From positions 60,415 to 124,414 of the forward strand of contig CALJHX010000003.1 of the NCBI GenBank assembly GCA_937770485.1: DNA of 64,000 nt, given 5' to 3'. The position numbers and the translations under genes were made by a program. The stretch comes from an uncultured Verrucomicrobiae bacterium (lineage in GTDB: Bacteria; Verrucomicrobiota; Verrucomicrobiia; Limisphaerales; UBA1096). Each line of letters opens with the position of its first letter. Positions within the stretch are counted from its first letter, which is position 1. Positions 37,403 to 62,495 of the stretch are shown here, piece by piece. The notes under the pieces are model-generated. The model was not told the origin of the DNA and searched no databases. It saw only the letters and a list, made by a program, of their open reading frames with translations.

Positions 37403-37446
37403 GTTGATTTAGCTGCAGGATGCCGTGGTCTGGCCAGTGACTTGTC

Positions 37447-37650: not shown

Positions 37651-37715
37651 ATGAACATCAGTGAAAACGGTGTAACTGTGACCCACAGAAGTCGTAAGTC
37701 GTTGATAGAGAAAAA

Positions 37716-37805: not shown

Positions 37806-38171
37806 TTTGGGGCACACATCTTGGCCAAATCCAATGATCATTCAAGCCAATTGATAAAAACGCATGGTATTGTCGTGAAACAGTTTTCGTTGATACTGCG
37901 CTAAGCGATTGGAGACGATTTCCTTTAAGTTCTTGGTTTCACGAGACTCCTCAAATTGCGGATAAATATCCAACGGGGTCATTAGCGGAAGCATTTTTCC
38001 CGATCAGCTAGGTGGCCCCAAATGGAACGGTTCGCATGCCGTGTCTTGACGGAGGTGCTTTTTACGACGGGAGGTTAAGGAATAGTCTCAGAATTCCCAG
38101 CAAGATTTGTCCTATAATTTAGCATGGAAAATTGATTTGGCCCAACCGCTTCGCCAAGCGACCATCTGGCC

Positions 38172-38618: not shown

Positions 38619-38647
38619 TCAAGAATGTAAGTTCGCTTTTCAATCAA

Positions 38648-40039: not shown

Positions 40040-40324
40040 GCGGGGAAAATTATCTTGGTCATTGGGTGTCACGGTCAAGAGGCGTTTATCATTCTACCAC
40101 ATGTCGTTTGGCGTGGTAGCTGTTTGCTGAGTCCCCTATAAATTTGATCACAATTCCGTCTGCACTGGCAATGCCGACGGTGGTCGGTGCTTTCTTCTTA
40201 TTTGGCTTGGGGAGCCAAGTTGCCTATTCGCCGAAGTCGGTTATGGTTTTTCGATCCACTTCCTGTTGACAGTCGACTGCAGGCTTAAGCCGGTGCCGTG
40301 AATCATAGCAAACAACACCACACT

Positions 40325-41884: not shown

Positions 41885-42095
41885 CAGACTTTATTAGCTT
41901 ATTAAATCGTTTCATGCAAGGTAAGTTCAAGAACACATAAGCCCATTTATGAAAAGTCAGTCTCTTCGAAATTAACAAAAGAAAACAGTTCTTTAAATAT
42001 TATTATTTTGGTGAAAATCCCTTGACAGGAACCCAGTAAATTATGAATGTCCGGCCGTTGTTTTTGATTTATTACCATCAGGATCTATTTTTATT

Positions 42096-45000
42096 ATGAC
42101 TAAACAAGCTAGTTTAAACGGAGTTATCGCCTTTATTATTGCATTGGCGGTAGGAATGCCTTCCTTGAAGGCGCAGGAATTGTCTCTGAGCGCCGAGGAC
42201 ATGCAGTACGACGCAAATGGAGCAAGCATTACACTTGATGGAGATGCCTCTGATTGGGCGGACGCCGAGTTCAAGAGCCAGATCCCGTTCGAGAAGGGTG
42301 GAGAGCTGGTATTATTTGAGGAGTACGGCGGCGGAACCTGGAGTGGTGTGGAGGATCACTCAAGCGCAGTGGCGTTTGCGTGGGATGCATCCAACTTATA
42401 TATCGGAGTTGTTGTGACAGATGACACGCACCAGAACGGTGGCAGTGGCTGGAACGGTGATTCGATCCAGATGGTATTTGCCAATGCAGCACAGGACACA
42501 GTGACTCACCTGTACAACTACGGTCTGAGCGACGGTGGTGATGTGGTGATCATGAATGAGAAGGGTCCAGGCGGTTCAGAGGCTTCGATCACACGTGATG
42601 AAGATTCAACGACTACGTTGTACGAGTTTTGTTTCCCAGCAGCCTCACTTGGTTTGGATGGCTACGAGAGTGGCATGCAGATCGGAGTGGGAGTATGCGT
42701 GAACGACGGTGATACACAGGATGGTCAGGGTGGCCAGAAGGGTTGGAGTGGTTGGGGTCCGTACGCAGCAGTGTACGGCAAGACAGCCAGTGCAACAGGA
42801 CTTGTGAGCCTTGTCGGTAACGCACCGGCTGCTGATCTAACGTTGAGCGCCGAGGACATGCAGTATGACGCAAATGGAGCAACCATTACACTTGATGGAG
42901 ATGCATCTGATTGGGCGGACGCCGAGTTCAAGAGCCAGATCCCGTTCGAGAAGGGTGGAGAGCTGGTATTATTTGAGGAGTACGGCGGCGGGACCTGGAG
43001 TGGTGCGGAGGATCACTCAAGCGCAGTGGCGTTTGCGTGGGATGCATCCAACTTATATATCGGAGTTGTTGTGACAGATGACACGCACCAGAACGGTGGC
43101 AGTGGCTGGAACGGTGATTCGATCCAGATGGTATTTGCCAATGCAGCACAGGACACAGTGACTCACCTGTACAACTACGGTCTGAGCGACGGTGGTGATG
43201 TGGTGATCATGAATGAGAAGGGTCCAGGCGGTTCAGAGGCTTCGATCACACGTGATGAAGATTTTACGACTACGTTGTACGAGTTTAGTTTCCCAGCGGC
43301 CTCACTTGGTTTGGATGGCTACGAGAGCGGCATGCAGATCGGAGTGGGAATATGCGTGAACGACGGTGACACACAGGATGGTCAGGGTGGCCAGAAGGGT
43401 TGGAGTGGTTGGGGTCCGTACGCAGCAGTGTACGGCAAGACAGCCAGTGCAACAGGACTTGTGAGCCTTGTTGGAGATGCACCGGCTGCTGATCTAACGT
43501 TGAGCGCCGAGGACATGCAGTACGACGCAAATGGAGCAAGCATTACACTTGATGGAGATGCCTCTGATTGGGCGGACGCCGAGTTCAAGAGCCAGATCCC
43601 GTTCGAGAAGGGTGGAGAGCTGGTATTATTTGAGGAGTACGGCGGCGGGACCTGGAGTGGTCCGGCTGATCACTCAAGCGCAGTGGCGTTTGCGTGGGAT
43701 GCATCCAACTTATATATCGGAGTTGTTGTGACAGATGACACGCACCAGAACGGTGGCAGTGGCTGGAACGGTGATTCGATCCAGATGGTATTTGCCAATG
43801 CAGCACAGGACACAGTGACTCACCTGTACAACTACGGTCTGAGCGACGGTGGTGATGTGGTGATCATGAATGAGAAGGGTCCAGGCGGTTCAGAGGCTTC
43901 GATCACACGTGATGAAGATTCAACGACTACGTTGTACGAGTTCAGTTTCCCAGCGGCTTCACTTGGTTTGGATGGCTACGAGAGTGGCATGCAGATCGGA
44001 GTGGGAATATGCGTGAACGACGGTGACACACAGGATGGTCAGGGTGGCCAGAAGGGTTGGAGTGGTTGGGGTCCGTACGCAGCAGTGTACGGCAAGACAG
44101 CCAGTGCAACAGGACTTGTGAGCCTTGTTGGAGATGCACCGGCTGCTGATCTAACGTTGAGCGCCGAGGACATGCAGTACGACGCAAATGGAGCAAGCAT
44201 TACACTTGATGGAGATGCCTCTGATTGGGCGGACGCCGAGTTCAAGAGCCAGATCCCGTTCGAGAAGGGTGGAGAGCTGGTATTATTTGAGGAGTACGGC
44301 GGCGGGACCTGGAGTGGTCCGGCTGATCACTCAAGCGCAGTGGCGTTTGCGTGGGATGCATCCAACTTATATATCGGAGTTGTTGTGACAGATGACACGC
44401 ACCAGAACGGTGGCAGTGGCTGGAACGGTGATTCGATCCAGATGGTATTTGCCAATGCAGCACAGGACACAGTGACTCACCTGTACAACTACGGTCTGAG
44501 CGACGGTGGTGATGTGGTGATCATGAATGAGAAGGGTCCAGGCGGTTCAGAGGCTTCGATCACACGTGATGAAGATTCAACGACTACGTTGTACGAGTTC
44601 AGTTTCCCAGCGGCTTCACTTGGTTTGGATGGCTACGAGAGTGGCATGCAGATCGGAGTGGGAATATGCGTGAACGACGGTGACACACAGGATGGTCAGG
44701 GTGGCCAGAAGGGTTGGAGTGGTTGGGGTCCGTACGCAGCAGTGTACGGCAAGACAGCCAGTGCAACAGGACTTGTGAGCCTTGTTGGAGATGCACCGGC
44801 TGCTGATCTAACGTTGAGCGCCGAGGACATGCAGTACGACGCAAATGGAGCAAGCATTACACTTGATGGAGATGCCTCTGATTGGGCGGACGCCGAGTTC
44901 AAGAGCCAGATCCCGTTCGAGAAGGGTGGAGAGCTGGTATTATTTGAGGAGTACGGCGGCGGGACCTGGAGTGGTCCGGCTGATCACTCAAGCGCAGTGG

Positions 45001-46289
45001 CGTTTGCGTGGGATGCATCCAACTTATATATCGGAGTTGTTGTGACAGATGACACGCACCAGAACGGTGGCAGTGGCTGGAACGGTGATTCGATCCAGAT
45101 GGTATTCGCCAATGCAGCACAGGACACAGTGACTCACCTGTACAACTACGGTCTGAGCGACGGTGGTGATGTGGTGATCATGAATGAGAAGGGTCCAGGC
45201 GGTTCAGAGGCTTCGATCACACGTGATGAAGATTCAATGACTACGTTGTACGAGTTCAGTTTCCCAGCGGCTTCACTTGGTTTGGATGGCTACGAGAGTG
45301 GCATGCAGATCGGAGTGGGAATATGCGTGAACGACGGTGACACACAGGATGGTCAGGGTGGCCAGAAGGGTTGGAGTGGTTGGGGTCCGTACGCAGCAGT
45401 GTACGGCAAGACAGCCAGTGCAACAGGACTTGTGAGCCTTGTCGGAGACGCACCTAGCGTTGATCTAACGTTGAGCGCTGAGGACATGCAGTACGACGCA
45501 AATGGAGCAACCATTACACTTGATGGAGATGCCTCTGATTGGGCGGACGCCGAGTTCAAGAGCCAGATCCCGTTCGAGAAGGGTGGAGAGCTGGTATTAT
45601 TTGAGGAGTACGGCGGCGGGACCTGGAGTGGTCCGGCTGATCACTCAAGCGCAGTGGCGTTTGCGTGGGATGCATCCAACTTATATATCGGAGTTGTTGT
45701 GACAGATGACACGCACCAGAACGGTGGCAGTGGCTGGAACGGTGATTCGATCCAGATGGTATTTGCCAATGCAGCACAGGACACAGTGACTCACCTGTAT
45801 AACTACGGTCTGAGCGACGGTGGTGATGTGGTGATCATGAATGAGAAGGGTCCAGGCGGTTCAGAGGCTTCGATCACACGTGACGACGATACGATGACTA
45901 CGTTGTACGAGTTTAGTTTCCCAGCGGCTTCACTTGGTTTGGATGGCTACGAGAGTGGCATGGCAATCGGAGTGGGAATATGCGTGAATGACGGTGACAC
46001 ACAGGATGGTCAGGGTGGCCAGAAGGGTTGGAGTGGTTGGGGTCCGTACGCAGCAGTGTACGGCAAGACAGCCAGCGCGACCGGTTTGGTTAATCTAGTG
46101 GGAGAGTCCACATCTGATGGTCCTGCTCTAAGCGTTGTGAGCAACGGAGATGGCACGGTAACGATGACCTTTGAAGGTACGCTACAGTCAGCTCCGACAG
46201 TGAATGGTCCATGGTCGGACGTGGACGCAGCGAGTCCGTTGACGGTTCCGGCCGACCAGGCAGCGCAGTTTGGCCGAGCAAAGAATTAA
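42096..46289 (+). CDS. Giant secreted protein: six tandem 219-aa CBM9/DOMON-like modules plus the shared C-terminal module
   Basis: Signal peptide, then 6 x (LSAEDMQYDANGA.ITLDGDASDWADAEF..AFAWDASNLYIGVVVTDDTHQNGGSGWNGDSIQMVFA..GVCVNDGDTQDGQGGQKGWSGWGPY..). The domain-family call is tentative. Confidence 0.75.
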   Translation: MTKQASLNGVIAFIIALAVGMPSLKAQELSLSAEDMQYDANGASITLDGDASDWADAEFKSQIPFEKGGELVLFEEYGGGTWSGVEDHSSAVAFAWDASNLYIGVVVTDDTHQNGGSGWNGDSIQMVFANAAQDTVTHLYNYGLSDGGDVVIMNEKGPGGSEASITRDEDSTTTLYEFCFPAASLGLDGYESGMQIGVGVCVNDGDTQDGQGGQKGWSGWGPYAAVYGKTASATGLVSLVGNAPAADLTLSAEDMQYDANGATITLDGDASDWADAEFKSQIPFEKGGELVLFEEYGGGTWSGAEDHSSAVAFAWDASNLYIGVVVTDDTHQNGGSGWNGDSIQMVFANAAQDTVTHLYNYGLSDGGDVVIMNEKGPGGSEASITRDEDFTTTLYEFSFPAASLGLDGYESGMQIGVGICVNDGDTQDGQGGQKGWSGWGPYAAVYGKTASATGLVSLVGDAPAADLTLSAEDMQYDANGASITLDGDASDWADAEFKSQIPFEKGGELVLFEEYGGGTWSGPADHSSAVAFAWDASNLYIGVVVTDDTHQNGGSGWNGDSIQMVFANAAQDTVTHLYNYGLSDGGDVVIMNEKGPGGSEASITRDEDSTTTLYEFSFPAASLGLDGYESGMQIGVGICVNDGDTQDGQGGQKGWSGWGPYAAVYGKTASATGLVSLVGDAPAADLTLSAEDMQYDANGASITLDGDASDWADAEFKSQIPFEKGGELVLFEEYGGGTWSGPADHSSAVAFAWDASNLYIGVVVTDDTHQNGGSGWNGDSIQMVFANAAQDTVTHLYNYGLSDGGDVVIMNEKGPGGSEASITRDEDSTTTLYEFSFPAASLGLDGYESGMQIGVGICVNDGDTQDGQGGQKGWSGWGPYAAVYGKTASATGLVSLVGDAPAADLTLSAEDMQYDANGASITLDGDASDWADAEFKSQIPFEKGGELVLFEEYGGGTWSGPADHSSAVAFAWDASNLYIGVVVTDDTHQNGGSGWNGDSIQMVFANAAQDTVTHLYNYGLSDGGDVVIMNEKGPGGSEASITRDEDSMTTLYEFSFPAASLGLDGYESGMQIGVGICVNDGDTQDGQGGQKGWSGWGPYAAVYGKTASATGLVSLVGDAPSVDLTLSAEDMQYDANGATITLDGDASDWADAEFKSQIPFEKGGELVLFEEYGGGTWSGPADHSSAVAFAWDASNLYIGVVVTDDTHQNGGSGWNGDSIQMVFANAAQDTVTHLYNYGLSDGGDVVIMNEKGPGGSEASITRDDDTMTTLYEFSFPAASLGLDGYESGMAIGVGICVNDGDTQDGQGGQKGWSGWGPYAAVYGKTASATGLVNLVGESTSDGPALSVVSNGDGTVTMTFEGTLQSAPTVNGPWSDVDAASPLTVPADQAAQFGRAKN
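42177..46118 (+). repeat. Six tandem direct repeats of exactly 657 bp
   Basis: Units start at 42177, 42834, 43491, 44148, 44805 and 45462. Units 3 and 4 are identical over the 657-nt comparison frame 43501-44157 vs 44158-44814 (compared line by line). Unit 5 differs at a handful of positions, and units 1, 2 and 6 differ slightly more. Confidence 0.95.
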
Positions 46290-46323
46290 TTCGGTTAATT
46301 AAACCAAAAAAAACACTCATCTA

Positions 46324-46356
46324 GAGACCGGGCTTAATGCCCGGTCTCTTTTTTTT
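46324..46356 (+). terminator. Rho-independent terminator
   Basis: GAGACCGGGC-TTAAT-GCCCGGTCTC (perfect 10-bp stem) followed by T8. Confidence 0.85.
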
Positions 46357-47085
46357 AAAAGCAACGCAAAAGCGAAACTCGAAAGTATTATGAATAACTG
46401 TAATATTAATCATTTTACACATAACTCAAAAGCATGCCTCGGTAAGAGACCACGCTGAGTGGTGTTCCCTTTGTATGGAGGGAAAGAAGATTGAGAAAGA
46501 ATTGTCAGCTAGAATTAAAAACATTCAATTATTTAAACGCCATAGGATAGTGGTAGAGTGGTGAAAGGGGTAATTGGTGGAAATTGATTTTCATATGACA
46601 CCTAGGATGACTGTCGTAGCCAACTGATGCAGCAAGTTATTGAGTGTATGATAAGTGGTTTTACCATGTGCCCTGGATGACACTATTTTATCCTGATTCA
46701 CAATGGTTAGTTCCTCTCAGGAAGTAACCAGTAATAATAAAATTAGGATGAAAGACGTTAATCTAACTATATGAGTCCTAAATGCTTTTCGCCTGTTTAA
46801 GAATAAAATCGCTGAGTTTATAGGGAAGTACCTCGGTCTTTTGAGACTCGGATTCTTTCGGTTTTAATTGCCGATGGCTATGTTTTGGGTTGTCTCTTAC
46901 ATTATTAATCAATCATATCAGATAACAATGCTATTATGTAAAGGTTCTTCATTTTAAAAGCTGCCTCAATGCATTTGCAGAATGAAGTAAATACCTGTTT
47001 TTTTCATTGAGATTGACTCGCCCTATCACGACTGACACTTTTCTCGCCTTATTTGGTGAGTGCTTAGTATAAGTTTACAGGAATT

Positions 47086-48117
47086 ATGTTTAACAAATCT
47101 AACATTAATAAAAGTCGAATTTCATCTGTTCTTTTTTTAGTGGTTTCTTGTGTGACTATTTTGGGAGAACAGAACGACATGCCTGTTCTTTTTGTCGAAA
47201 AGGAAACGTTCGATTTTGGCAAGGTAATCATCGGCGAGGATGTCGCGGTTCGTTTTGAAATACAAAACAAGGGGAAGCGTGACTTGCTTCTATATAATGT
47301 TTCCCCGTCTTGCGCCATTTGTACGGACGGTCTCTCTTGGCCAGATAAATTGGGGCCCGATGAAAAGGGCTTTATTGGTGCAAGATTACAAACTGGCGAA
47401 CTATATGGTTCGGTAGATCGAACACTATCAATTTACTCAAACCATAAAGAAAAAAGAAAAATCCTGCATGTAACGGGCCAAGTTTGGTCGCCTCTGGAAC
47501 TTAAGCCTTCCTATGCCTATTTTCCCATCTTGAATTCAATTGAGTCCAACACAAATTTGAGAGTTGGGATTCTAAGCAAGGTAGCGGAGGAAGTAATCCT
47601 TTCTCGCCCACGTTGCGACAACCCAAAATTTCAACCCAAACTTGTCACTGAGAAAAAGGGGAGGAAGTATACCCTAATTGTCCAGACAGTTCCCCCAATG
47701 GAGTTTGGCACTAACAGCGGACTGATCAGAATCGACACCAGTTATCCAGGATTGCCTAACATTCTAATCAGAGCAACCGCGAAAGTTACCCCACCTTTGG
47801 AATTTAGTCCTTCCATGATTTTCCTTAAGGCTGGTGACCTTAAGAATCCCATCAGAAAAACCGTCAGGCTTTCAGTCAACTCTACGGAGCCTGTTGAGTT
47901 TTTGGGGTATAGCCTAAACATTGAGGGTCCCACGGTTGAGGTCATGGAAAAGCAACCTAGTAAGTATATTAGATTCGCCATAGAGTTTCCTAAGGGTTTT
48001 CACGTTGATCCAAATTTAGAGGCATCATTATTGGTGAAGACGTCTCACAAGCAATTCAGCGAGTTGAAACTGCCCATCAAAGCCTACACCAATGTTTTCA
48101 GAAGCAAAAAAGATTAA
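47086..48117 (+). CDS. DUF1573 domain protein (ASH/Ig-like fold)
   Basis: FDFGKVIIGEDVAVRFEIQNKGKRDLLLYNVSPSCAIC fits the DUF1573 signature (.FDFG.v..G......f...N.G...L.i..v..sC.C). Confidence 0.7.
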   Translation: MFNKSNINKSRISSVLFLVVSCVTILGEQNDMPVLFVEKETFDFGKVIIGEDVAVRFEIQNKGKRDLLLYNVSPSCAICTDGLSWPDKLGPDEKGFIGARLQTGELYGSVDRTLSIYSNHKEKRKILHVTGQVWSPLELKPSYAYFPILNSIESNTNLRVGILSKVAEEVILSRPRCDNPKFQPKLVTEKKGRKYTLIVQTVPPMEFGTNSGLIRIDTSYPGLPNILIRATAKVTPPLEFSPSMIFLKAGDLKNPIRKTVRLSVNSTEPVEFLGYSLNIEGPTVEVMEKQPSKYIRFAIEFPKGFHVDPNLEASLLVKTSHKQFSELKLPIKAYTNVFRSKKD

Positions 48118-48156
48118 AGAGCCACTTTTCTTGGTTGCGTATATGAGTATTAGACG

Positions 48157-51100: not shown

Positions 51101-51846
51101 CCATGCCGTTCCTGTATTCACAATTCAAGAGTTTCAGGCAGTTCAGTCGAGCAAGTGTCGCCCAAGTGCTTGGTGACACCCAAGCAAAGGCGAGGTTGCT
51201 TTCTGTACAAACATTGCATTCCTGCGTGTTCATCAATGAAGGGAATCGCTTTAGAATGGCAAACTTACCGGATGCAGTCCAGAGGGCTCCCACTCATGGC
51301 ATTGTTGTTGACGATTTTGACGGGGACGGTATTGAGGATTTGTTCCTCGCGCAGAACTTCTTCCCGACACGAACCCAGAGTGAGCGGTTGGATGCATCGA
51401 GGGGCGTTCTCCTGAAGGGGCAAGGGACGGGAAACTTCACGGTCCTGGAATCTAAGCAAAGTGGAATTAATCTTGTCGGTGACCAAAGAGCCGCAGTTTC
51501 AGGAGATTTCGACCGCGATGGAATGAGTGATCTTGTCGTGACACGGAACAGTGGAGAGACCGGTCTATTTCTTAATAAATCGAAAAAAATCGGATTGCGT
51601 GTGGTGGTTCAGGGGGCTGCGGGGAATACCCATGGAATAGGATCTGTTTTGAGGTTGAAATATCATGACGGGATGGGCCCGGCTCGCCAAATCACTGGGA
51701 GCAGCGGTTACCGTTCACAGGGTAGTTCCGTTCAAGTGTTACACGCAATTCGGCCGGTTGAATCCGTTTGGATACAGAAACCCGACGGCAAGATTCTGAC
51801 CCATGAAATAAAGAAGGGCACGCGTGAGGTGAGGATCAACTATTAA
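48157..51846 (+). CDS. FG-GAP/VCBS repeat protein with ASPIC/UnbV domains (CRTAC1-like)
   Basis: Many ..D.DGDG..DL.v.. FG-GAP-type repeats. Two UnbV/ASPIC-like segments: GIGSKVSLTGGAVEVQTKEIVSGGRFLSGSE and GIGSVLRLKYHDG..ITGSSGYRSQGS. GTG start, so the exact start is uncertain. Confidence 0.8.
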   Translation: MNCFPYNNYCAGNFVRLIFSVFFLSFESPGVPANSPDNNLQKGYSSRELNIQSRGTSNTFYRIPHEKTGVQFVNQVDEWEASQNRVLYNGAGIAVGDYNKDGWPDIFLCAIDGNSVLYKNNGNWTFADTTSSSGLQELGHRHRGAVFADLNGDDWLDLLVGTVDRGIRTFINQRGVYQEMSQASGLAGVYAPMTMALADVDSNGTLDLYVTNNRPSDIRDEGSITLRRVGGKLVIPAKYRNRLIVSGGIVKEYGSADFLFLNDGKAIFRKSSWTEGRFLTPQGEPLSDAPLDWGLSAAFHDINHDGLPDLYVCNDFWTPDRFWINQGDAFKLLDPEKFGKTSASSMGVDFSDYDRDGDVDLFVVDMLSRDLEMRKRQAPAQDLSDRLVNQGKYADQVMRNTLLNNRGDGSFAELANMAGLSASDWSWSPFFLDVDLDGYEDLIITAGHYKDTQDLDVNALIQTRQKPRDRSLTAQQRKLQFSKEMMENNRLYPSLDLPIITFRNEGNGVFEEKTLQWGTSDNGIHHGMALADFDLDGDMDLIVNNMNQEAGLYENRFMAPRLAVILHGESPNTSGIGSKVSLTGGAVEVQTKEIVSGGRFLSGSETKVVFGTGSGSNKMSLVVEWRSGKTSVIDQVKQNCLYHVYEKGSSEDKKDKKLLPTSPLFEKLSESIYHVHVENVFDDFANQPLLPFKLSQAGPAVCVYDINADHWDDLIVGCSAGGRLHVFLNDQNGGFRQLSVSQVSQDDVASIFSLGTGKENEFFTINCGYEGGSGVILSRHQLVEEKILSNSVMSIPIKSVGAVAQADIDGDGDLDLFLGGGVYPGKYPESSKSAIYLQNGPQFVPDSSNAKTLLGLGVVNGAVWSDLDADGYPELITAGHWQPVRIFKNVKGILKNVTKEMGLEGFTGLWNSVQVGDINGDGRMDLVAGNWGLNSPYKLPPEKPLNLVFGDINQDGTNELIESDYNAGVLVPVRTFKDLAGPMPFLYSQFKSFRQFSRASVAQVLGDTQAKARLLSVQTLHSCVFINEGNRFRMANLPDAVQRAPTHGIVVDDFDGDGIEDLFLAQNFFPTRTQSERLDASRGVLLKGQGTGNFTVLESKQSGINLVGDQRAAVSGDFDRDGMSDLVVTRNSGETGLFLNKSKKIGLRVVVQGAAGNTHGIGSVLRLKYHDGMGPARQITGSSGYRSQGSSVQVLHAIRPVESVWIQKPDGKILTHEIKKGTREVRINY

Positions 51847-51938
51847 ACATGAACCCCTTTCTTGTTTAAGTCCTTGACTGGCGTAACCCTCCAATCACTA
51901 ATTACGTCTTTTCAGTCAACACATCGAACGTTAGTGCT

Positions 51939-52670
51939 ATGAAAACGAAGCAAACTGGATTCACCCTCATCGAACTGTTGGTTGTCATCGCCATCATTGC
52001 CATCCTGGCCAGCCTACTGCTTCCCGCCCTGGGCAGGGCCAAGAGCAAAGCCCGACAAACGGTCTGCATGAGCAACCAAAAACAACTTGGCCTGACTATG
52101 GCAATGTATGCAGAGGATTTTGAAGGAAAGTTCCCTCTCTCATTAGCTGGTTCTACACAGCAGCACGCCAACTGGTTGGTTATTATGCACGAGGTGGGCT
52201 ATCTCAGTACCATGGATTTGTTCAGCGATCCCGCCGATGTCGAAGGATCCCACAATTCGTTCGACTTCCGGAAAAGAACCATCAAGATCGGAAACAAGAG
52301 CCGGGACATTGTTTTTTCATATGGTGCCAGTGAGCAACTGGTTGGCCCGGCCAACATCAAGTACAAGAAAATCAGTCAAGTACCGGTGCCGGACAAGATC
52401 CTTTTATTTGCGTGTGCCAATTACATGGTCGTACCATTCTGGGATCACGAGCGGGTCTACAATGCCAGTGGCCCACACCCAGCAGGGCAAACGACTAATC
52501 CTCCAAATGAACGCTATGCCCGCCACAACTCGGGAAAAAACAACAGGCCGAACAAGCAAAGTAAAGGTGGCAACAACATAACTTTTGCCGATCTTCACTA
52601 TGAGTACAAAAACCAGTACTACATCGACAGAAACCTCTCGTGGTATGAGAATCATAAACCAATGCAATAA
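51939..52670 (+). CDS. Prepilin-type N-terminal cleavage/methylation domain protein (pseudopilin-like)
   Basis: [38 protein letters not shown]. It is a paralog of the gene at 28853. Confidence 0.85.
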
Positions 52671-52728
52671 AATTTGATCGGTGTTTCTTTTATAAAGGTT
52701 TTAGAAGCACCTCTTTTATTCTCATTAT

Positions 52729-52837
52729 TTATTAATTGAAGCACTTGACTGTGCTTCATTTACACATTTTAGGTGGTTTTTCTTTTTTTCATCTCTTTAT
52801 TCTTCTTTTTTTATTAATTAAAGCACTTGACTGAGCT
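52729..52837 (+). promoter_or_regulatory. Duplicated TTATTAATT(G/A)AAGCACTTGACTG(T/A)GCT box; the first copy contains a perfect palindrome
   Basis: Copies lie at 52729-52755 and 52811-52837. GAAGCAC-TTGACT-GTGCTTC at 52738-52757 is a 7-bp inverted repeat around a TTGACT (-35-like) hexamer. The gene start is at 52903. Confidence 0.4.
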
Positions 52838-52902
52838 ATATCATGCTGCAAAGTAAGAACTTCTTTGCCAACTGAGTAGTTATTTTATTAATTAATAATA
52901 GC

Positions 52903-55900
52903 ATGAAACGTCTATTACAAACCGTATTGGTGAGCAGCTTTTTGGCTGCCAGTTCTGTCACCTACGCTCAGAGCGTAGCCCAACCGGGAGATCCGGTTAT
53001 TGCCTCTTCTGCAAACAGTCCCGGATCCGAGGGTGTAGCGAATGCAATTGATGGAAAACCCACAAAATACCTGAATTTTGACGGTAAAGATGGAAACCCC
53101 TCTGGGTTTATCGTTTCCCCTTCTTTGGGCAAAACACTTGTTACTGGCCTTTCGATGCAGACGGCGAATGATGGGCCGGATCGTGATGTCAAGGTGGTTA
53201 CACTCGAAGGGTCTAATGATGCAGAGGCAACCGCATGGGATGCAGGTAACTGGGAGTTGATCGTTCAGTTAGATGATATCCCTGCAATTGAGGATCGTTT
53301 TACAACTCAGACGTTTAGTTTTGAGAATAAAAAAGGTTTCATGCACTACCGCTGGACGGTGGTCGATACTCAGGGCCCAAGTACTTGTTGTATGCAAATC
53401 GCAGAGGTTGGCTTTTTGGGAGGTGTTTACTCTGGGCCGACTGATGTAACGCAGCCAGGTGATGCTATCATAGCATCTTCGGCAAATAGTCCGGGTTCTG
53501 AAGGGGTTGCCAATGCAATTGATGGGCAACCGACCAAGTATTTGAATTTTGATGGTAAAGACAGTCAACCATCAGGATTTGTTGTTACACCTTCACTGGG
53601 TATGACCTATGTGACAGGAATGGCCTTGCAGTCAGCAAATGATGGCCCAGATCGGGACCCGAAGTCGATTACACTTGAAGGGTCCAATGACGATGAGATA
53701 ACAGCATATGATGAGGGTAATTGGCAGTTAATCACTCAAATAGATGATATCCCTGCATGGACAGGTCGTTTTCAAACAAAAGAATTGTTTTTTGAAAATG
53801 ATCGAGCATTTAAACACTACCGTTGGGTTGTATTGGATACACAAGGACCTAGTACTTGCTGCTTGCAGATCGCTGAGGTCGAACTACTTGGGGCGGTTCC
53901 TCCGTCTGATGTCACAAGCCCTGGAGATGCCTTGATTGCATCTTCTGCCAATAGTCCGGGTTCTGAAGGCGTAGCTAATGCGATCGATGGACAGCCGACG
54001 AAGTATTTGAATTTTGACGGTAAAAACAGTGTGCCATCCGGTTTCGTAGTGACCCCTTCGATTGGCAAGACTGTTATTACTGGTGTGCATATGCAATCAG
54101 CAAACGATGGCCCGGATCGTGATGTGAAAGTTGTTAGGATTGAGGGATCCAATGATAACGAAATTGCAGACTACGATTCTGGGAATTGGCAATTGATCAC
54201 AGAGATGAATGTTCCTGCTTACACGGGTCGTTTTCAGTCTCAAGTGCTCATGTTTGATAATGTTTGGGCTTTCAAGCATTACAGGTGGATAGCGGTTGAC
54301 ACGCAGGGGCCGAGTACCTGCTGTATGCAGATCGCAGAAGTAGAACTGCTGGGTGGAGCTGCTCCAAAGGATGTTACATCACCAGGTGATGCAGTATTCG
54401 CAAGTTCAGCTAACAGCCCCGGTTCTGAGGGTGTTGCTAACGCAATCGATGGCCAACCCACAAAATACTTGAACTTTGATGGGAAGAATAGTGTTCCCTC
54501 AGGTTTTGTGGTTACTCCAGGAATTGGCGCTACGACAATTACAGGAGTATCTATGCAGACCGCAAATGATGGTCCTGACAGAGATGTAAAGGTCCTTTTA
54601 ATTGAGGGAACAAATGATGTTGTTTCTGGTTGGGATGACGGCGCTAGCTGGACACAGATTATCCAGATTGATGACATTCCAGCAATTGAAGATCGTTTCA
54701 CAAACCAAGAATTTTATTTTGCAAACGACAAATCTTACACCAGTTACAGGTGGACTGCAGTAGATACGCAAGGGCCGAGCACTTGCTGTATGCAGATTGC
54801 TGAAGTGGAGTTTTTAGCCGCCACAACATCAGTTGACTGTGACTTGGCCGCATTCAAGCGGCAGCCTGTCGACGCGGTTGTGCTGGATGGGGAACCGGCC
54901 ACGTTCCTGGTGGAGGTGAACGGTCCCTGGCCACTGCAGTGGCACAAAAATGGAGAGCCGATTTCGGGAGCGGTTTCAACCAGCTACACAACTGAAGCGG
55001 TTAACGCAGGAAATATATCTGACAAGTATTCCGTTCAGATAGTGGGATGTGAAATGAGTGCCGAGGTAGTTGCGAGCATCCATGATCCGAGCGCGCACCC
55101 GGTTAGCATCGGTCTTAACTTTAATGGTGGAGGTGCCAATGGTGCTCCAACTGCCTCACTTCCGACAGATATAGCTGGAGTTCAGCTTCAGGCATATTGG
55201 AATAATATTGCGAACAATACCGGAAATAATGAGGAGGTGCTGCTGGATAGTCTTGGTAAAGATGCCTTGGGAGTTGAAGACTATGAAATTACAGTCGATT
55301 TTGCTTCTGCGGGCAATTGGGGTGCGGGAACAGGTGATGCAAATCCGACTCAGAGATTACTTAATGGAACACTGGTAGGGCGGGGAGGCGATTCGCATAT
55401 AGAATTCCAGGAGATTCCAGATGGAAATCACACCCTGATCGTCTATACGGTCGGAATTCCACTTCAGTTTCAAAACCAATACTACAAGGTTGTAGGGGAA
55501 GAGGAGGACTCAGATCGCGTAATTTACACCGATCAGATGAATGCGGATCAATATAATCCCATTCAGCGGTTTTTCCGTGGCTCGAGTGAAGATTCAAACA
55601 ATAGGACACTATCAAACTATGTGAGATTTGATAATGTAAAACCAGTTGAAGGTTATGTTCGGCTTGAGTGGGGCACAACAACAACTGGTTTTGATAGGGG
55701 TGTTGCTGTCAATGCTGTTCAGTTGATCTTGAATAATCCGGCATTGTCAATCGATCCCCCCTCAGTCACGTCTAATCCGACACCAACTATCGCTCAGGAG
55801 GGAAGTGCAGCTTCGATCTCAGTTGCAGCAACTGGCGAGGGGTTGACCTACCAGTGGCTTAAGAACGGTGCTGCCATCCCTGATGGCGGAAAAATTAGTG

Positions 55901-57009
55901 GCGCAACGACAGGGACTATAGTTGTCAATGGTCTATCGGAAGCCGAAGAGGGCTTTTATAGTTTGGCTATTTTTAATGAAGCAGGGAGCGTTATCACATC
56001 AAAAGCTAAACTTTCGATGGTTTCCAGTGGAGCCACGATGTCAGATGACTTGGTTGTTCACCTGAAGTTCGACGAAACCAGTGGAACAACGAGTTCAAAC
56101 TCTGGTTCGGGTACTGATACAGCAACTATTTATGATGATTACGGTGACCCGAACGAGGAGCCAATTGGTGCGGAAGGACTTGTCGGGAACGGAATACTGA
56201 TTAATGGCGCTGAAAGTGAGACTTACGCTTTCGGAGTTTTGGATAATTATCCCAAGATCAATGACAACGGAACGGTTTCTCTTTGGTTAAATACTCCGGG
56301 AATAGATGGTGAATCGGCCGTTGTTGTGAGAAATGGATCAGCCGTTAGTATTGTAACTGAAAACCAGTTTCAAATTACAATAACGAACAATCTCGATGGA
56401 GAGCCGGTTTTGGGCTGTGCCATTTCAGCAGGACCCAATGTGATGAACATAGTCGACACCGAAGCGCTAGCTCTAGACGAGTGGGTTCATGTTGCACTGA
56501 CTGTAGATGGAGGTCAGCTAAGGTTATACAAGAATGGCAAATTAATCGGAGTGGCCGATTATTTGGATAGAATTAATGGATCAACGGAGGACTGGTTGGC
56601 TATCGGGGCGAACCTCACTTTGGTTCAGGAGGAAGGTGAAGATCCTTACTTTGCAATGGATGAAGCAAACCCTCAGGCATTCTCTGGAACTCTTGATGAT
56701 TTAGCCTTGTGGCACACCTCAAGAAGTGCTGAGGAGATCGAGTCGATTTATGCTAAAGGTGTTGCAGGATCGGATGCCACAAGTGCAACTGTTACAATTC
56801 CGGATTTCGTGGAACCCGGAGAGGTCAGTGGCACGGAACCGACTATTAGTTTGGCGCGCAATAATGATGGAACGGTCACAGTAACGTATAATGGTACATT
56901 ACAGTCTGCTCCTTCAGCAAACGGCCCGTGGGAGGATGTAGCAGGAGCGACAAGTCCGCTTACTATTGAGGCAGATGCTCCAGTAACATTTGCACGAAGC
57001 CGTAATTGA
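52903..57009 (+). CDS. Giant secreted protein: four F5/8 type C (discoidin)-like modules, two Ig-like modules, a LamG-like module and the shared C-terminal module
   Basis: 4 x (SSANSPGSEGVANAIDG.PTKYLNFDGK..NDGPDRD.K..EGSND..HYRW...DTQGPSTCC.QIAEVE.LG). Ig-like segments: ..LQWHKNGEPISGA and ..LTYQWLKNGAAIPDG. LamG segment: DEWVHVALTVDGGQLRLYKNGKLIG..FSGTLDDLALW. Confidence 0.7.
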   Translation: MKRLLQTVLVSSFLAASSVTYAQSVAQPGDPVIASSANSPGSEGVANAIDGKPTKYLNFDGKDGNPSGFIVSPSLGKTLVTGLSMQTANDGPDRDVKVVTLEGSNDAEATAWDAGNWELIVQLDDIPAIEDRFTTQTFSFENKKGFMHYRWTVVDTQGPSTCCMQIAEVGFLGGVYSGPTDVTQPGDAIIASSANSPGSEGVANAIDGQPTKYLNFDGKDSQPSGFVVTPSLGMTYVTGMALQSANDGPDRDPKSITLEGSNDDEITAYDEGNWQLITQIDDIPAWTGRFQTKELFFENDRAFKHYRWVVLDTQGPSTCCLQIAEVELLGAVPPSDVTSPGDALIASSANSPGSEGVANAIDGQPTKYLNFDGKNSVPSGFVVTPSIGKTVITGVHMQSANDGPDRDVKVVRIEGSNDNEIADYDSGNWQLITEMNVPAYTGRFQSQVLMFDNVWAFKHYRWIAVDTQGPSTCCMQIAEVELLGGAAPKDVTSPGDAVFASSANSPGSEGVANAIDGQPTKYLNFDGKNSVPSGFVVTPGIGATTITGVSMQTANDGPDRDVKVLLIEGTNDVVSGWDDGASWTQIIQIDDIPAIEDRFTNQEFYFANDKSYTSYRWTAVDTQGPSTCCMQIAEVEFLAATTSVDCDLAAFKRQPVDAVVLDGEPATFLVEVNGPWPLQWHKNGEPISGAVSTSYTTEAVNAGNISDKYSVQIVGCEMSAEVVASIHDPSAHPVSIGLNFNGGGANGAPTASLPTDIAGVQLQAYWNNIANNTGNNEEVLLDSLGKDALGVEDYEITVDFASAGNWGAGTGDANPTQRLLNGTLVGRGGDSHIEFQEIPDGNHTLIVYTVGIPLQFQNQYYKVVGEEEDSDRVIYTDQMNADQYNPIQRFFRGSSEDSNNRTLSNYVRFDNVKPVEGYVRLEWGTTTTGFDRGVAVNAVQLILNNPALSIDPPSVTSNPTPTIAQEGSAASISVAATGEGLTYQWLKNGAAIPDGGKISGATTGTIVVNGLSEAEEGFYSLAIFNEAGSVITSKAKLSMVSSGATMSDDLVVHLKFDETSGTTSSNSGSGTDTATIYDDYGDPNEEPIGAEGLVGNGILINGAESETYAFGVLDNYPKINDNGTVSLWLNTPGIDGESAVVVRNGSAVSIVTENQFQITITNNLDGEPVLGCAISAGPNVMNIVDTEALALDEWVHVALTVDGGQLRLYKNGKLIGVADYLDRINGSTEDWLAIGANLTLVQEEGEDPYFAMDEANPQAFSGTLDDLALWHTSRSAEEIESIYAKGVAGSDATSATVTIPDFVEPGEVSGTEPTISLARNNDGTVTVTYNGTLQSAPSANGPWEDVAGATSPLTIEADAPVTFARSRN

Positions 57010-57044
57010 TTTAGTTAGATTAACTAAAACGAGAACACACACCA

Positions 57045-57076
57045 GAGGCCGGGCTTTATGCCCGGCTTCTTTTTTT
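57045..57076 (+). terminator. Rho-independent terminator, homologous to the one at 46324
   Basis: GAGGCCGGGC-TTTAT-GCCCGGCTTC (10-bp stem with one G-U pair) followed by T7. Confidence 0.8.
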
Positions 57077-57197
57077 GTTTAGAGTGCTTTGGTAGAGCGA
57101 AGTGTCGACACCGGACTAGGAGATTCAATTTTCCCCTTCGGCTGCGATGGAAACTTCCGACCAAAAGCCTTTACCCGCTATCCAAGCATCTTAACTT

Positions 57198-57953
57198 TTG
57201 CCTGTTAGGTTTATCCTGATATTTGCATTGGCCATACGTTTGGAAAAGACGCTGGGTGCTGAGAAGTCCAGCGTGTTTAATATCGGCCTGAATGACTGGG
57301 GCTGTGAAGATGCGAGATTACGAAGTACCAATTTTTTCGAGACGCCCAATATCGACCGGTTGGCCGGCAGGGGATTCGGTTTAGCCAAGCCTTCGTCGGA
57401 GCGGCGATCTGCTCGCCGCCGCGTGCAGCTATCCTAACCGGAAAAATCACCCGCGCGCCTTTACATGATAATTTGGTACGAGGGTGCCGTGAGTGACGGG
57501 AAAGACAACAGGCGACTGCTGGAGGCCAAGGCCTAGCCCAATCTTCCGCGCAAGAGGTGACGCTGACTGTGACATTCAAGTACCGCGGTTATTCCACCGC
57601 GCATATCGGCAGATGGCACCTCGGGGAGTCCTCATTTTTTTCTGAAATCCGGGGATGCAAAGTGAACTTCGTTGATGCCTGCAGGGGCGAGTCGGCGACT
57701 TTCTTTTTGCGTTACGGGGGCCGTAGTCGAGGAGTGACCTTAAACTGCGCTACCTGCCGGTATGGCAGAAGCACCTAGGCGATTATCTCAGCGACCACAC
57801 TCATATTTCATTGGGCAGGAGCGGGTGCAGTGGTTTTTTTATCTTTATTTCTCTACCGTGCACACGCAAATCGAGGGGAGTTTTAAATTTGAGGATGACC
57901 CCGGCAAAACAAATAACCTTTTTTCGGAACAACCCGTTCGGGGAAAGGCTTGA
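57198..57953 (+). pseudogene. Degraded sulfatase pseudogene (frameshifts and large deletions)
   Basis: Sulfatase landmarks are scattered over three frames within about 750 nt: ..ETPNIDRLAGRGF.., AICSPPRAAILTGK (C-x-P-x-R), GYSTAHIGRWHLGE, ..DDPGKTNNLFSEQP. Confidence 0.75.
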
Positions 57954-58053
57954 GAAGGAATATTGACGACTGAGGCGATCTGTTGATGCCAAGGAGTTGG
58001 CTCGAAAATCAAACTGGGTTCTCCCTGGAAGTAACCTGCATCTCTCCAGCTTA

Positions 58054-59700: not shown

Positions 59701-59722
59701 GGTCAAAAACTTGAACCAACAA

Positions 59723-61273: not shown

Positions 61274-61274
61274 T

Positions 61275-62462: not shown

Positions 62463-62495
62463 TTCTTTTTTATTAGCAAAGTTTTCAGTCAGGCG

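Follow-up and report, generated by a model that had tools for sequence, protein, structure and literature searches.

A probable flexible genomic island that lacks the signature palindrome of its host, an uncultured marine Verrucomicrobiota bacterium

In Synechococcus elongatus PCC 7942 a scarcity of the HIP1 palindrome (GCGATCGC) marks xenologous genes and genomic islands (Delaye et al. 2011, PMC3025956), and in Neisseria the DUS follows a core-over-accessory pattern (Treangen et al. 2008, PMC2397512, for the DUS/USS of Neisseria and Pasteurellaceae). Flexible genomic islands of the additive and the replacement type, including islands for giant proteins, have been described in Alteromonas macleodii (Lopez-Perez et al. 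2013, PMC3698932). Here we analyzed a stretch of 64,000 nucleotides (the window) from the genome of an uncultured marine Verrucomicrobiota (G000), in which one block is devoid of the palindrome TTGGCCAA. This block appears comparable to the HIP1-poor islands as well as to the DUS-poor accessory genome.

As in the HIP1 system, the word is a hyper-abundant octameric palindrome formed in situ, genes that are word-poor and show atypical codon usage cluster in variable regions, and ribosomal-protein and other highly expressed or constrained genes are word-poor here too, with 0.22 sites/kb in the tuf-rpoBC-rps/rpl cluster despite a GC3 of about 0.68. The block itself shows what Delaye et al. used to recognize HIP-scarce genes, namely too few palindromes for its length and a codon usage that is atypical but unlike that of highly expressed genes. 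Xenologous genes of that kind have their nearest neighbours outside the group of the host; our search within the genus returned ASPIC orthologues with 52–89% amino-acid identity that co-diverge with the flank. The systems differ in the word and the phylum and also in that the residence-time assumption can be tested at our locus, where it fails for most of the island (module M2).

Similar to DUS and USS, TTGGCCAA is over-represented in the core but scarce in accessory DNA, it is less frequent in the most constrained genes, and its sites are far more conserved than their surroundings: 64% of the G000 sites are common to the relative G010 at 80% identity, compared with a neutral expectation of about 17%. 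In contrast, the DUS is non-palindromic with a demonstrated role in DNA uptake, and the mismatch spectrum of lineage-specific TTGGCCAA sites is near the expectation for point mutations. With the Alteromonas islands the block shares an equivalent location between conserved flanks and a cassette content that varies in close genomes, two of the properties by which flexible genomic islands are defined (PMC3698932), together with a lower GC, predicted cell-surface and giant glycan-binding proteins and a cassette number that varies over short divergence as in the additive type. Unlike that study, we compared metagenome-assembled genomes (MAGs) and metagenome contigs of several species and not isolates of one, and our island is also marked by the missing genome-signature palindrome.

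Distribution of the palindrome

The window contains 21 TTGGCCAA sites compared with 1.9 expected from shuffles. Six of them lie at 37821–41040 and six at 58420–63257, none is found in the 17.4 kb between (41041–58419), and the stretch 23777–37820 has a single one at 26519. These positions are identical to those of the original prediction, which had also described the dense flanking segments as G+C-rich (measured GC 0.57–0.59) and the block as lower in G+C; the latter holds for 46–57 kb (0.42–0.48) but not for the CBM9 gene of module M1, whose GC of 0.54 is near the genome mean of 0.564 and which has no palindrome either. TTGGCCAA is the core of a longer word, CGCTTGGCCAAGCG, and occurs 2074 times in the 3.30 Mb of the genome (0.63/kb). 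At this density a gap of such length has a Poisson probability of 1.8e-5, or of about 1.4e-4 for an effective length of about 14 kb, in which the repeat copies of the CBM9 gene are discounted (about 3.3 kb are not independent, as this gene consists of six tandem 657-nt units with 98% identity). Genome-wide, eight gaps of at least 17.3 kb were observed where 0.04 are expected, and the 26 gaps above 10 kb (3.9 expected) sum up to 416 kb.

Local Markov models give 0.3–0.8 expected sites in the block, no lower than in its flanks, which agrees with the earlier claim that the word should not be lost through base composition alone. The block is at random expectation, so that the enrichment is missing and there is no avoidance. 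It contains 16 one-mismatch neighbours of TTGGCCAA and no perfect site (P about 0.002, based on the genome-wide share of 33% perfect sites among perfect and one-mismatch sites together).

The second palindrome-sparse stretch (23777–37820) encodes an ABC1 kinase, a pectate-lyase-like protein, three ankyrin-repeat cassettes, a SnoaL protein, a 1293-aa repeat protein and a glyoxalase. Among five relatives its conservation extends to about 25.6 kb in G007 and to about 24.15 kb in the other four, and past these points only fragments and matches to multi-copy cassettes were found. A synteny comparison of 24–37 kb, proposed together with the original prediction, thus finds this stretch poorly conserved.

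Gene content and states of the island

The block at about 41885–57160 is probably an additive flexible genomic island located in the divergent intergenic region, formerly a shared promoter, of two sulfatase genes, and we are reasonably confident in this as the best explanation overall. Five ORFs fill 13.8 of its 15.3 kb, with no other ORF of at least 100 aa, and they are arranged in the modules M1, M2 and M3 (Table 1). The gene content agrees with the list given earlier (giant repeat proteins, DUF1573, ASPIC, pseudopilin and a sulfatase remnant). M3 has four older repeats of about 465 nt each, a GC3 of 0.40 and no palindrome, and a C-terminal domain of about 50 aa is common to M1 and M3. Signal peptides, a prepilin-type N-terminus and CBM9, F5/8C, LamG, Ig and FG-GAP domains, all predicted from sequence, suggest that the island proteins are probably secreted, located at the cell surface and glycan-binding.

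Table 1: Features of the island, its flanks and the second palindrome-sparse stretch (positions in the window).
Feature	Position	Strand	Remarks
Second sparse stretch	23777..37820	.	1 site
tRNA-Ser(cga), right edge of second sparse stretch	37716-37805	-	
Left palindrome-dense core flank	37821..41884	.	6 TTGGCCAA sites, GC 0.575
Acyltransferase, left flank	38648-40039	+	
Sulfatase L, left flank	40325-41884	-	
Left junction, AT-rich intergenic, upstream of both sulfatase L and CBM9 gene	41885..42095	.	
M1, 1397-aa secreted giant protein, six CBM9 domains	42096..46289	+	Pfam, predicted signal peptide
M1 tandem units, six x 657 nt, 98% identity	42187-46128		
AT-rich spacer M1/M2	46290..47085	.	GC 0.36, no palindrome, no ORF of at least 100 aa
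M2 (module)	47086..52670	+	GC 0.47, GC3 0.44-0.59, 0 palindromes
M2 DUF1573 protein	47086-48117	+	Pfam, NCBIfam
M2 FG-GAP/ASPIC protein	48157-51846	+	Pfam, NCBIfam
M2 DUF1559 pseudopilin	51939-52670	+	Pfam, NCBIfam
M3, 1368-aa secreted giant protein, F5/8 type C, Ig and LamG domains	52903..57009	+	
Terminator-like hairpin then T-run, just downstream of M3	57046..57079	+	Read from sequence
Sulfatase R, degraded remnant	57165..57965	+	tblastn with G009 protein
Right palindrome-dense core flank	58054..63257	.	6 sites
3-keto-disaccharide hydrolase/GDSL gene, right flank	58054-59763	-	
Sulfatase, right flank (further genes beyond)	59723-61273	-	

On the left side the alignment with the empty-site allele of G009 ends at 41822 within the N-terminus of sulfatase L, and on the right side a terminator-like hairpin (stem GCCGGGC / GCCCGGC, followed by TTCTTTTTTTGTT) marks the end of the island. 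The sulfatase R remnant is broken into pieces in three frames, is interrupted by in-frame stops and has lost an internal part, roughly residues 296–484; in the empty-site allele (G009 contig C5) this gene is intact, encoding 534 aa, and divergent from sulfatase L. The left flank is 49–94% covered in five relatives (mean 78%), and the right flank is 92–94.5% identical to G007 contig C237, where it is joined to M3. The block does not show the hallmarks of classical integrative genomic islands (an integrase, or a tRNA with direct repeats): there is no integrase or recombinase among the five island ORFs, no direct repeat pairing the left and right junctions was found, and no tRNA is present at the insertion site, the nearest being tRNA-Ser(cga) 4.1 kb to the left past two core genes.

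Among the relatives we distinguished three states of the junction, with M1 beside the sulfatase (A), with M2 beside the sulfatase and no M1 (B), and empty (C). State A occurs only in G000, G007 and nine metagenome contigs, which all break within the M1 repeats, state B in G010 and ten metagenome contigs, and state C in three to four metagenome contigs and G009, where about 250 bp separate the two flanks. Sulfatase L is thereby the neighbour of the island in 19 metagenome contigs as well as in G000, G007 and G010. The flanking-gene tree requires at least six state changes; between the sisters L160 (empty) and L161 (island) the flank differs by about 2%, and states A and B are separated by flank differences of 2–3%. 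All genomes are incomplete MAGs (59–93% complete) and absence refers to searches at the DNA level, which miss fast-evolving genes. With such searches M1 had no match in 20 relatives except for its first 225 nt in G007, and it is polymorphic among relatives whose flanks are 92–97% identical at the protein level. M2 orthologues were found in G007, G009 (relocated), G010, G025, G022 and ten metagenome contigs and are essentially palindrome-free, with a single site in G025; ASPIC orthologues are present in about five of 25 other species of the genus. M3 has palindrome-free orthologues in G007 and G010 with 96% and 82% amino-acid identity, respectively (pS 0.73 for G010). The idea that the block is fast-turnover accessory DNA was therefore borne out by the empty site in G009, the at least three alternative states with at least six changes, the restricted occurrence of ASPIC and the poor coverage of palindrome deserts (see below), and 42–57 kb is not conserved in synteny across the family.

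A low-GC3 compartment and the age of the modules

Throughout the genome the palindrome density is 0.03–0.2/kb in genes with GC3 below 0.55 and 0.6–0.9/kb above 0.65, and G009 shows the same pattern. The low-GC3 compartment makes up about 12% of the coding DNA, is mostly accessory and includes the island (GC3 0.40–0.59 compared with a genome median of 0.72, no site in 13.8 kb of coding DNA), and TTGGCCAA is at random expectation there. In the core the word is enriched by an order of magnitude, strongly conserved and even reshapes protein sequences: amino-acid-changing substitutions create TTGGCCAA in core genes (forward-to-expected ratio 2.5–2.9), and the ratio of palindrome-encoding tripeptides to reversed controls increases from 1.1 to 3.2 with rising GC3 when the composition expectation is almost flat. 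Paralogues of one family (FG-GAP/ASPIC) carry 2–6 sites at GC 0.54–0.65 and 0–1 in low-GC copies. Four randomly drawn palindrome deserts were covered to 0–14% in five relatives, compared with 70–86% for typical windows, and a desert of normal GC on contig C10 was also poorly covered (about 26% by a tally of the matches listed). GC content as the sole cause of the missing sites was ruled out by the Markov expectation, the flat tripeptide supply and this palindrome-free C10 desert.

Conditional on GC3 alone, about 1.4–2.3 sites are expected in the block with a probability of about 0.1–0.25 for none, so that its emptiness is unremarkable for its GC3 and goes little beyond what the compartment explains. 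Within GC3 strata, genes absent from a relative compared with those present have 0.20 vs 0.38, 0.57 vs 0.66 and 0.62 vs 0.79 sites/kb, a modest effect. As the block proteins contain only one forward and one reversed host tripeptide compared with 7.2 expected from their composition, part of the emptiness is protein-specific. A measure of synonymous opportunity, giving one slot in the 13.8 kb, was replaced by the reversed-tripeptide and composition controls, since the palindrome inflates LAK and GQ peptides genome-wide and the measure is circular.

Between G000 and G009, 265 sites are shared and 264 and 220 are lineage-specific; for G000 and G010 the numbers are 95 shared and 124 and 53 lineage-specific. 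At 55–65% of the lineage-specific sites the other genome differs by one base, at 21–28% by two and at 15–17% by at least three. These shares nearly match those expected from a binomial at 15% divergence, except that four or more differences are slightly too frequent. Bounded indels relative to G009 are unpolarized without an outgroup and were used descriptively only, and as sampling the largest contigs of G009 is biased for the presence of low-GC3 genes, we used the reverse test and whole-genome searches instead. One 19.5-kb segment specific to G000 relative to G009 has a normal palindrome density and was probably deleted from G009 or falls into a gap of its assembly.

Regarding age, the DUF1573-ASPIC module lies beside the same sulfatase across the clade, and across the clade the ASPIC and sulfatase distances correlate (Spearman 0.77) with nearly equal magnitudes. 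Synonymous sites of the block are saturated relative to G010 (pS 0.73–0.76 compared with a core median of 0.46, using best-score orthologues and a genome-wide background), and still its GC3 is 0.40–0.57 in both lineages compared with 0.72–0.84 for core genes. In all relatives the module has a GC of 0.45–0.50 next to flanks of 0.58–0.62, and polarized substitutions in the block show no AT-to-GC excess (145 S>W vs 96 W>S, and 263 vs 195). Island DNA from 19 contigs contains no perfect and 20 one-mismatch sites in 40.4 kb, whereas in 145 kb on the core side of these contigs 109 perfect and 211 one-mismatch sites were counted; for empty-site DNA the count is 16 perfect sites over 25.5 kb, and the 1.56-kb sulfatase L gene alone shows eight palindrome columns with at least 17 gains or losses among 33 relatives on the same tree. 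M2 has thus been tied to the locus since the ancestor of the clade, and in no lineage did it gain palindromes or GC. M3 has probably been linked to the locus for a similarly long time, as judged from two independent lineages (G000/G007 and G010). Only M1 looks comparatively recent, as it is confined to one subclade, is polymorphic among very close relatives and has repeats that are 98% identical.

Since M2 is old and never gained palindromes or GC, the absence of the palindrome is a sign of membership in the flexible compartment and not of the date of arrival. The earlier suggestion that it tracks residence time is contradicted by M2, which co-diverges with its flank and is saturated without a single site in 40.4 kb, and the related suggestion of a recent acquisition of the block remains for M1 and not for most of the block, where M2 is long-resident. 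A recent transfer of the right half of the block between G000 and G007 (96% identity compared with 84–87% in the left flank) was also considered and rejected, as G007 has a mean identity of 89.8% with HSPs of 82–97%, making 95.7% high but no outlier. In the comparison with G007 the pseudopilin gene is the sole standout (pS 0.006).

Competing explanations and possible mechanism

The whole block might have arrived recently from a palindrome-free donor of lower GC, with too little time for palindromes or amelioration. Its atypical composition and missing palindromes, the empty site in G009 and the precedent of Synechococcus elongatus, where low numbers of HIP1 served to recognize recent xenologues (PMC3025956), would fit, as would M1 with its nearly identical repeats, its polymorphism between closely similar flanks and no match in 20 relatives beyond the first 225 nt in G007. 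For M2, however, such a clock is already contradicted by the co-divergence with the flank over the clade, by the synonymous saturation relative to G010 without a rise in GC3, by the lack of an AT-to-GC excess, by 40 kb of island DNA without palindromes next to a gene with at least 17 events and by its closest ASPIC relatives in the search of the genus, which lie inside it, so that we regard this explanation as unlikely. An old locus whose cassettes are repeatedly swapped by recombination in the flanks from a palindrome-free external pool, keeping the DNA always young, would account for the at least six state changes, some at about 2% flank divergence, and for the different context of M2 in G009, and islands of the replacement type are known in Alteromonas (PMC3698932). 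Block genes are also less diverged than the genome median relative to G007 (pS 0.006–0.10 vs 0.25) and G009 (0.28 vs 0.38), yet more diverged relative to G010, and a 2.6-kb segment in another desert is 97% identical in G007 and G011. We nevertheless consider such perpetual exchange rather unlikely, as M2 distances follow the flank pair by pair with similar magnitude as predicted by vertical co-inheritance, the only donors seen belong to the same palindrome-bearing clade, and 95.7% identity to G007 is inside the genome-wide spread of 82–97%.

Repeat-rich and beta-rich surface proteins could be unable to host TTGGCCAA, or be selected against it, whatever the history of their DNA. The scarcity of host tripeptides in the block and the low density in the constrained tuf-rpoBC-rps/rpl cluster, paralleled by HIP1 (PMC3025956), point in this direction. 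But FG-GAP/ASPIC paralogues with normal GC carry 2–6 sites, the non-coding parts (the 796-nt spacer and 57.0–58.4 kb) are empty as well, near-sites occur at 0.49/kb compared with roughly 0.37/kb at random for 24 octamers and give no sign of avoidance, and in core genes the word even arises through amino-acid-changing substitutions, which makes such a constraint very unlikely as the main explanation. Finally, as the MAG is 83% complete with 4.3% contamination and 3.3 kb of the gap are a tandem repeat, the gap might have arisen by chance, from base composition or through a chimeric contig. This reading is refuted by the Poisson probabilities with and without the repeat copies, by a Markov expectation that is not below that of the flanks, by the genome-wide statistics and by independent assemblies, in which both junctions were recovered (contigs C215 and C237 of G007, C171 of G010 and 19 metagenome contigs).

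Returning to the flexible island, it is possible, and we propose it tentatively, that the core enrichment and the high GC3 are upheld by a force acting only where allelic homologous recombination is frequent or selection is efficient. Such a force might be a molecular drive similar to DUS or to biased conversion. An island that is polymorphic for presence or absence and allelically divergent would rarely meet a homologous partner, and would then sit at an AT-biased mutational equilibrium where the drive does not act. GC3 and palindrome density climb together across the lineages, from G000 as the lowest to G007, G009 and G010, the G000 core is losing GC (74 S>W vs 21 W>S), and lineage-specific sites are fewer in G000 than in each relative, which was taken in support of the drive, as was the matching core-over-accessory pattern of the DUS in Neisseria (PMC2397512). 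The mismatch spectrum of the lineage-specific sites is close to the prediction for point mutations, so that an origin of the sites by recombination is hypothetical. That TTGGCCAA enrichment and high core GC3 are two read-outs of one force depending on recombination or gene conversion seems somewhat doubtful at present. If true, palindrome density would be a built-in map of long-term homologous recombination and no residence clock, and islands would stay palindrome-free and drift towards AT as long as they are polymorphic, whatever their age. It would also argue against a uniform mutational origin in situ of HIP-like palindromes, e.g. by methylase/Vsr-type repair.

In summary, the flexible genome in this Verrucomicrobiota clade can be reliably recognized by the missing palindrome even in fragmentary MAGs; it is a portion of about 12% of the coding DNA that is rich in genes for giant surface proteins. 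Since a core gene and island genes are adjacent and co-inherited throughout the clade, and the core gene gains and loses palindromes where the island shows neither gains nor amelioration, the island is a clean natural experiment on the unexplained HIP phenomenon. It contradicts the widely shared view that words of this kind build up in all DNA as residence time increases, and narrows the mechanisms to those that discriminate between the core and the flexible genome, i.e. a recombination-coupled drive or selection that is effective on the core only.

The palindrome and its absence from the block

As the original prediction had it, the palindrome TTGGCCAA is unevenly distributed in the window, with 21 sites against 1.9 expected from dinucleotide-preserving shuffles. 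Six of them fall in 37821-41040 and another six in 58420-63257; 41041-58419 is free of the word, and 23777-37820 has a single copy (26519). No other octamer family is as over-represented in the genome as this word, which has 2074 copies in 3.30 Mb (0.63/kb), against 462 for the runner-up palindrome by frequency, and which forms the centre of a longer palindrome, (C)(G)CTTGGCCAAG(C)(G). It is present in all tested relatives, with 766-3286 copies of the 10-mer per genome against 6-19 of a reversed-word control. The Poisson probability of a 17.4-kb gap is 1.8e-5, about 3.3 kb of this gap being non-independent sequence because the CBM9 gene consists of six tandem 657-nt units of 98% identity. Genome-wide, 26 gaps exceed 10 kb (3.9 expected; 416 kb in total, mostly of low GC) and eight are at least 17.3 kb long (0.04 expected).

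The palindrome-free block at about 41885-57160 had also been described as lower in G+C, which holds for 46-57 kb (0.42-0.48) but not for the CBM9 gene (0.54; genome mean 0.564). That base composition alone should not remove the word was borne out by local Markov models of order 0 to 3, which expect 0.3-0.8 sites in the block, and by the near-sites found there. Zero sites is therefore the plain random expectation: the enrichment is missing and there is no avoidance. In the block, words one mismatch away number 16 and perfect copies none, whereas genome-wide 33% of the perfect and one-mismatch words together are perfect (P ~0.002).

An additive island beside a sulfatase gene

The block carries three modules, M1 to M3, whose features are collected in the table. 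M1 and M3 have signal peptides and have in common a domain of some 50 residues at the C-terminus (...GTLQSAP..NGPW.DV...), and a terminator-like hairpin can be read 3' of M3. The same domain occurs in at least two further giant genes on contig C10 of this genome (77% even at DNA level) and may serve to sort or anchor the giant secreted proteins of the clade. A search of the island with Pfam/NCBIfam and by ORFs revealed no recombinase gene, no repeat pairs its left and right junctions, and no tRNA lies closer to it than 4.1 kb.

Features of the island, its neighbours and the shared C-terminal domain (window positions unless a contig is named)
Feature	Position	Basis
Left-flank sulfatase gene (minus strand)	40325-41884	
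M1, giant secreted protein, 1397 aa, six CBM9 domains	42096-46289	Pfam/NCBIfam
M2, DUF1573 protein	47086-48117	Pfam/NCBIfam
M2, FG-GAP/ASPIC-UnbV protein, 1229 aa	48157-51846	Pfam/NCBIfam
M2, DUF1559 prepilin-type protein	51939-52670	Pfam/NCBIfam
M3, secreted protein, 1368 aa, F5/8 type C, Ig and LamG domains	52903-57009	Pfam/NCBIfam
Sulfatase remnant, frameshifted, with stops in frame and an internal deletion	57165-57965	
Shared C-terminal domain, window copies	46116-46354, 56860-57009	
Shared C-terminal domain, copies on contig C10 of the same genome (G000)	C10:88069-88309, C10:66320-66560	

In the relative G009 (contig C5) the two flanks are only about 250 bp apart and an intact 534-aa sulfatase stands divergent from the orthologue of the left-flank sulfatase, so that the island occupies the promoter region that two sulfatase genes once shared, and the right-hand one of them has decayed in the genome of the window (G000). 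G007 possesses both junctions, as one contig (C215) extends 225 nt into M1 and another (C237) links M2 and M3 to the right flank. In G010, M2 directly follows the sulfatase without M1, and M3 lies beside DNA that in G000 is 8 kb further right; in G009, M2 was found in a different context. Orthologues of the ASPIC protein (52-89% identity at protein level) were detected in only five of the 25 other species of the genus (G009, G007, G025, G010 and G022), the remaining matches being paralogues of at most 45% identity, members of a family that each genome carries in 3-12 copies.

Using 80 metagenome contigs that encode relatives of the left-flank sulfatase, we scored what lies upstream of this gene. 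M1 adjoins it in nine contigs (state A), every one of which ends within the tandem repeats; DUF1573-ASPIC(-pseudopilin) adjoins without M1 in ten (state B); a second sulfatase or a 3-keto hydrolase marks the empty site in four (state C); and another four show other, core-like DNA (state D). The maximum-likelihood sulfatase tree (33 rows) requires at least six state changes, with a possible minimum of 3 and a shuffled mean of 14.7. An empty locus (L160) and an island-bearing one (L161) are starred sisters about 2% apart, and contigs of states A and B differ by 2-3%. By the terms applied to Alteromonas (PMC3698932), the block is a flexible genomic island of the additive type.

The DUF1559 pseudopilin gene behaves differently from its neighbours: between G000 and G007 (contig C237, L009) it is near-identical, with a synonymous divergence (pS) of 0.006 and 99.2% amino-acid identity, against a pS of 0.10 for M3, about 0.25-0.30 for the end of ASPIC and a genome median of 0.25. 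Many paralogues of this gene are present in every genome. Judged from these sequences, that single gene seems to have been converted or transferred very recently.

Palindrome deserts, GC3 and protein sequence

When 20-kb windows drawn at random (fixed seed) were searched as DNA in five relatives, four palindrome deserts with at most one site each showed an average coverage of 10%, 0%, 5% and 14%, whereas four typical windows with 10-20 sites each reached 70%, 86%, 81% and 70%. The block itself is covered to 27% and its left flank to 78% in the five relatives (Mann-Whitney P 0.01 for the coverage comparison). In the reverse test, G000 was found to contain 36-38% of the low-GC3 genes of G009 and 64-78% of its high-GC3 genes. 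The deserts are therefore accessory DNA, one of the two readings the original prediction had offered. This extends to the second sparse stretch at 23.8-37.8 kb, where conservation is lost at about 24.15 kb in four of the five relatives and which encodes an ABC1 kinase, ankyrin cassettes and a giant repeat protein. Three ankyrin-repeat genes in it (34474-36077 and 28392-28886) are members of a cassette family present in many copies: dozens of DNA matches of 70-90% are spread across many contigs in all relatives. Inside another desert, a segment of 2.6-2.7 kb (G000 contig C4:14427-17114, L116) is 97% identical in G007 and G011, against a typical identity of 80-90% to these genomes and with the rest of the desert absent from both; this segment was probably mobile recently.

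Palindrome density follows the GC3 of the genes, being 0.03-0.08/kb at GC3 <0.45, 0.15-0.20 at 0.45-0.55, 0.28 at 0.55-0.60 and 0.62-0.89 at >0.65. The genome median of GC3 is 0.72 and the block genes range from 0.40 to 0.59; genes with GC3 <0.55 number 235 and comprise 348 kb or 12% of coding DNA. Given its GC3, the block is expected to hold only about 1.4-2.3 sites, and thus its emptiness is typical for the low-GC3 compartment. A desert of 17.4 kb on contig C10 (84846-102290, L121) breaks this rule: its GC is normal (0.568), its giant genes and an FG-GAP paralogue have a GC3 of 0.62-0.78 and carry no site, and about 26% of it is covered in the five relatives, suggesting that flexible status matters beyond composition.

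The enrichment also reshapes the protein sequences of G000. At GC3 >0.55, LA[KN] and [FLIV]GQ, the tripeptides in which the word can be accommodated, outnumber their reversed controls by a factor of 2.5-3.2, and at <0.45 by a factor of 1.1, while their composition-based expectation shifts merely from 0.51 to 0.43/kb across GC3. About half of the LA[KN] tripeptides of the proteome are encoded as TTGGCCAA. Palindrome scarcity is not unique to flexible DNA and is also seen in strongly constrained or highly expressed genes: the tuf-secE-nusG-rplKAJL-rpoBC-rpsLG-fusA-rpsJ-rplCDW cluster (G000 contig C45:27680-45963; GC3 ~0.68) has four sites in about 18 kb (0.22/kb). For such genes Delaye et al. 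likewise reported a scarcity of HIP1 (PMC3025956).

Residence time of the modules

In core DNA the palindrome has a fast turnover: its sites are conserved far above neutrality and are still being gained. G000 shares 265 sites with G009 (264 G009-only, 220 G000-only; 624 kb aligned, ~85% identity), 95 with G010 (124 and 53; 200 kb, 80%) and 78 with G007 (40 and 27; 142 kb, 90%), and 64% of its sites are shared with G010 compared to 0.8^8 = 17% under neutrality. Eight palindrome columns of the 1.56-kb sulfatase gene beside the island account for 17 or more gains or losses on the tree of 33 rows. Against this turnover, 40.4 kb of island DNA on 19 contigs hold no perfect and 20 one-mismatch sites, the core side of the same contigs (145 kb) 109 and 211, and 25.5 kb of empty-site DNA 16 perfect sites.

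That the whole block arrived recently, as had been considered possible, is contradicted for M2. Pair by pair, the divergence of M2 follows that of the sulfatase (Spearman 0.77; e.g. 0.097/0.094, 0.207/0.195, 0.31/0.23), its pS to G010 is 0.73-0.76 (core median 0.46), and its GC is 0.45-0.50 in every relative against 0.58-0.62 in the flanks, with a GC3 of 0.40-0.57 in both the G000 and the G010 lineage against 0.72-0.84 in core genes. Outgroup-polarised substitutions in M2 show no AT-to-GC excess (145 GC-to-AT vs 96 AT-to-GC; 263 vs 195). From co-divergence, saturated pS, stable GC and zero palindromes it follows that M2 is an old resident of the locus whose composition is stationary and which the palindrome process does not affect, and the same probably applies to M3. 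Recency is left to M1, the only module that looks recent: it occurs in a single part of the tree, its presence varies between the closest relatives, and its repeat units share 98% identity. A perpetual replacement of cassettes from an outside pool would fit the rapid state changes and the block genes being less diverged than the median towards G007 and G009, but conflicts with the way in which M2 and its flank diverge in parallel, pair by pair. Sequence constraint of the island proteins accounts for part of the emptiness, since they are poor in host tripeptides in both orientations (one forward and one reversed vs 7.2 expected), yet it leaves the empty spacers, the random level of near-sites and the palindrome-bearing paralogues unexplained. 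Indeed, the FG-GAP/ASPIC family as such is not refractory to the word: in relatives, paralogues with a GC of 0.54-0.65 have 2-6 sites each, the normal-GC paralogues of G000 have nine sites in 17.7 kb, and copies of GC 0.32-0.50 have 0-1. Chance, composition and assembly artefact were excluded by gap statistics, Markov models and independent assemblies.

The island belongs to a flexible low-GC3 compartment with the word at random frequency, a state that is stable over the life of the clade. Tentatively, the force enriching the core would be other than a uniform mutational bias and would tell core from flexible DNA; its simplest candidate might, with similar reservation, be a drive that depends on recombination, or else selection that takes effect only where DNA recombines regularly. 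New sites have a mismatch spectrum near to that expected of point mutation. GC3 and palindrome density climb together from G000 through G007 and G009 to G010. With a core GC3 of 0.72 and 0.63 sites/kb, G000 is the lowest of the four; its core is losing GC (74 GC-to-AT vs 21 AT-to-GC polarised substitutions), and it has fewer lineage-specific sites than each relative (27/40, 220/264 and 53/124 for G007, G009 and G010). The lineage thus appears to be losing both GC and palindromes, and these joint trends are consistent with a common force.

Among the Verrucomicrobiota, this palindrome-free island corresponds to two known cases, the HIP1-poor cyanobacterial islands (PMC3025956) and the accessory genome poor in DUS (PMC2397512), and it is a typical marine flexible island, whose giant proteins are probably surface-located (PMC3698932). 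What it adds is a clean demonstration that a missing palindrome is no residence-time clock, as M2 stayed free of it while the adjoining sulfatase gene went through its many gains and losses.
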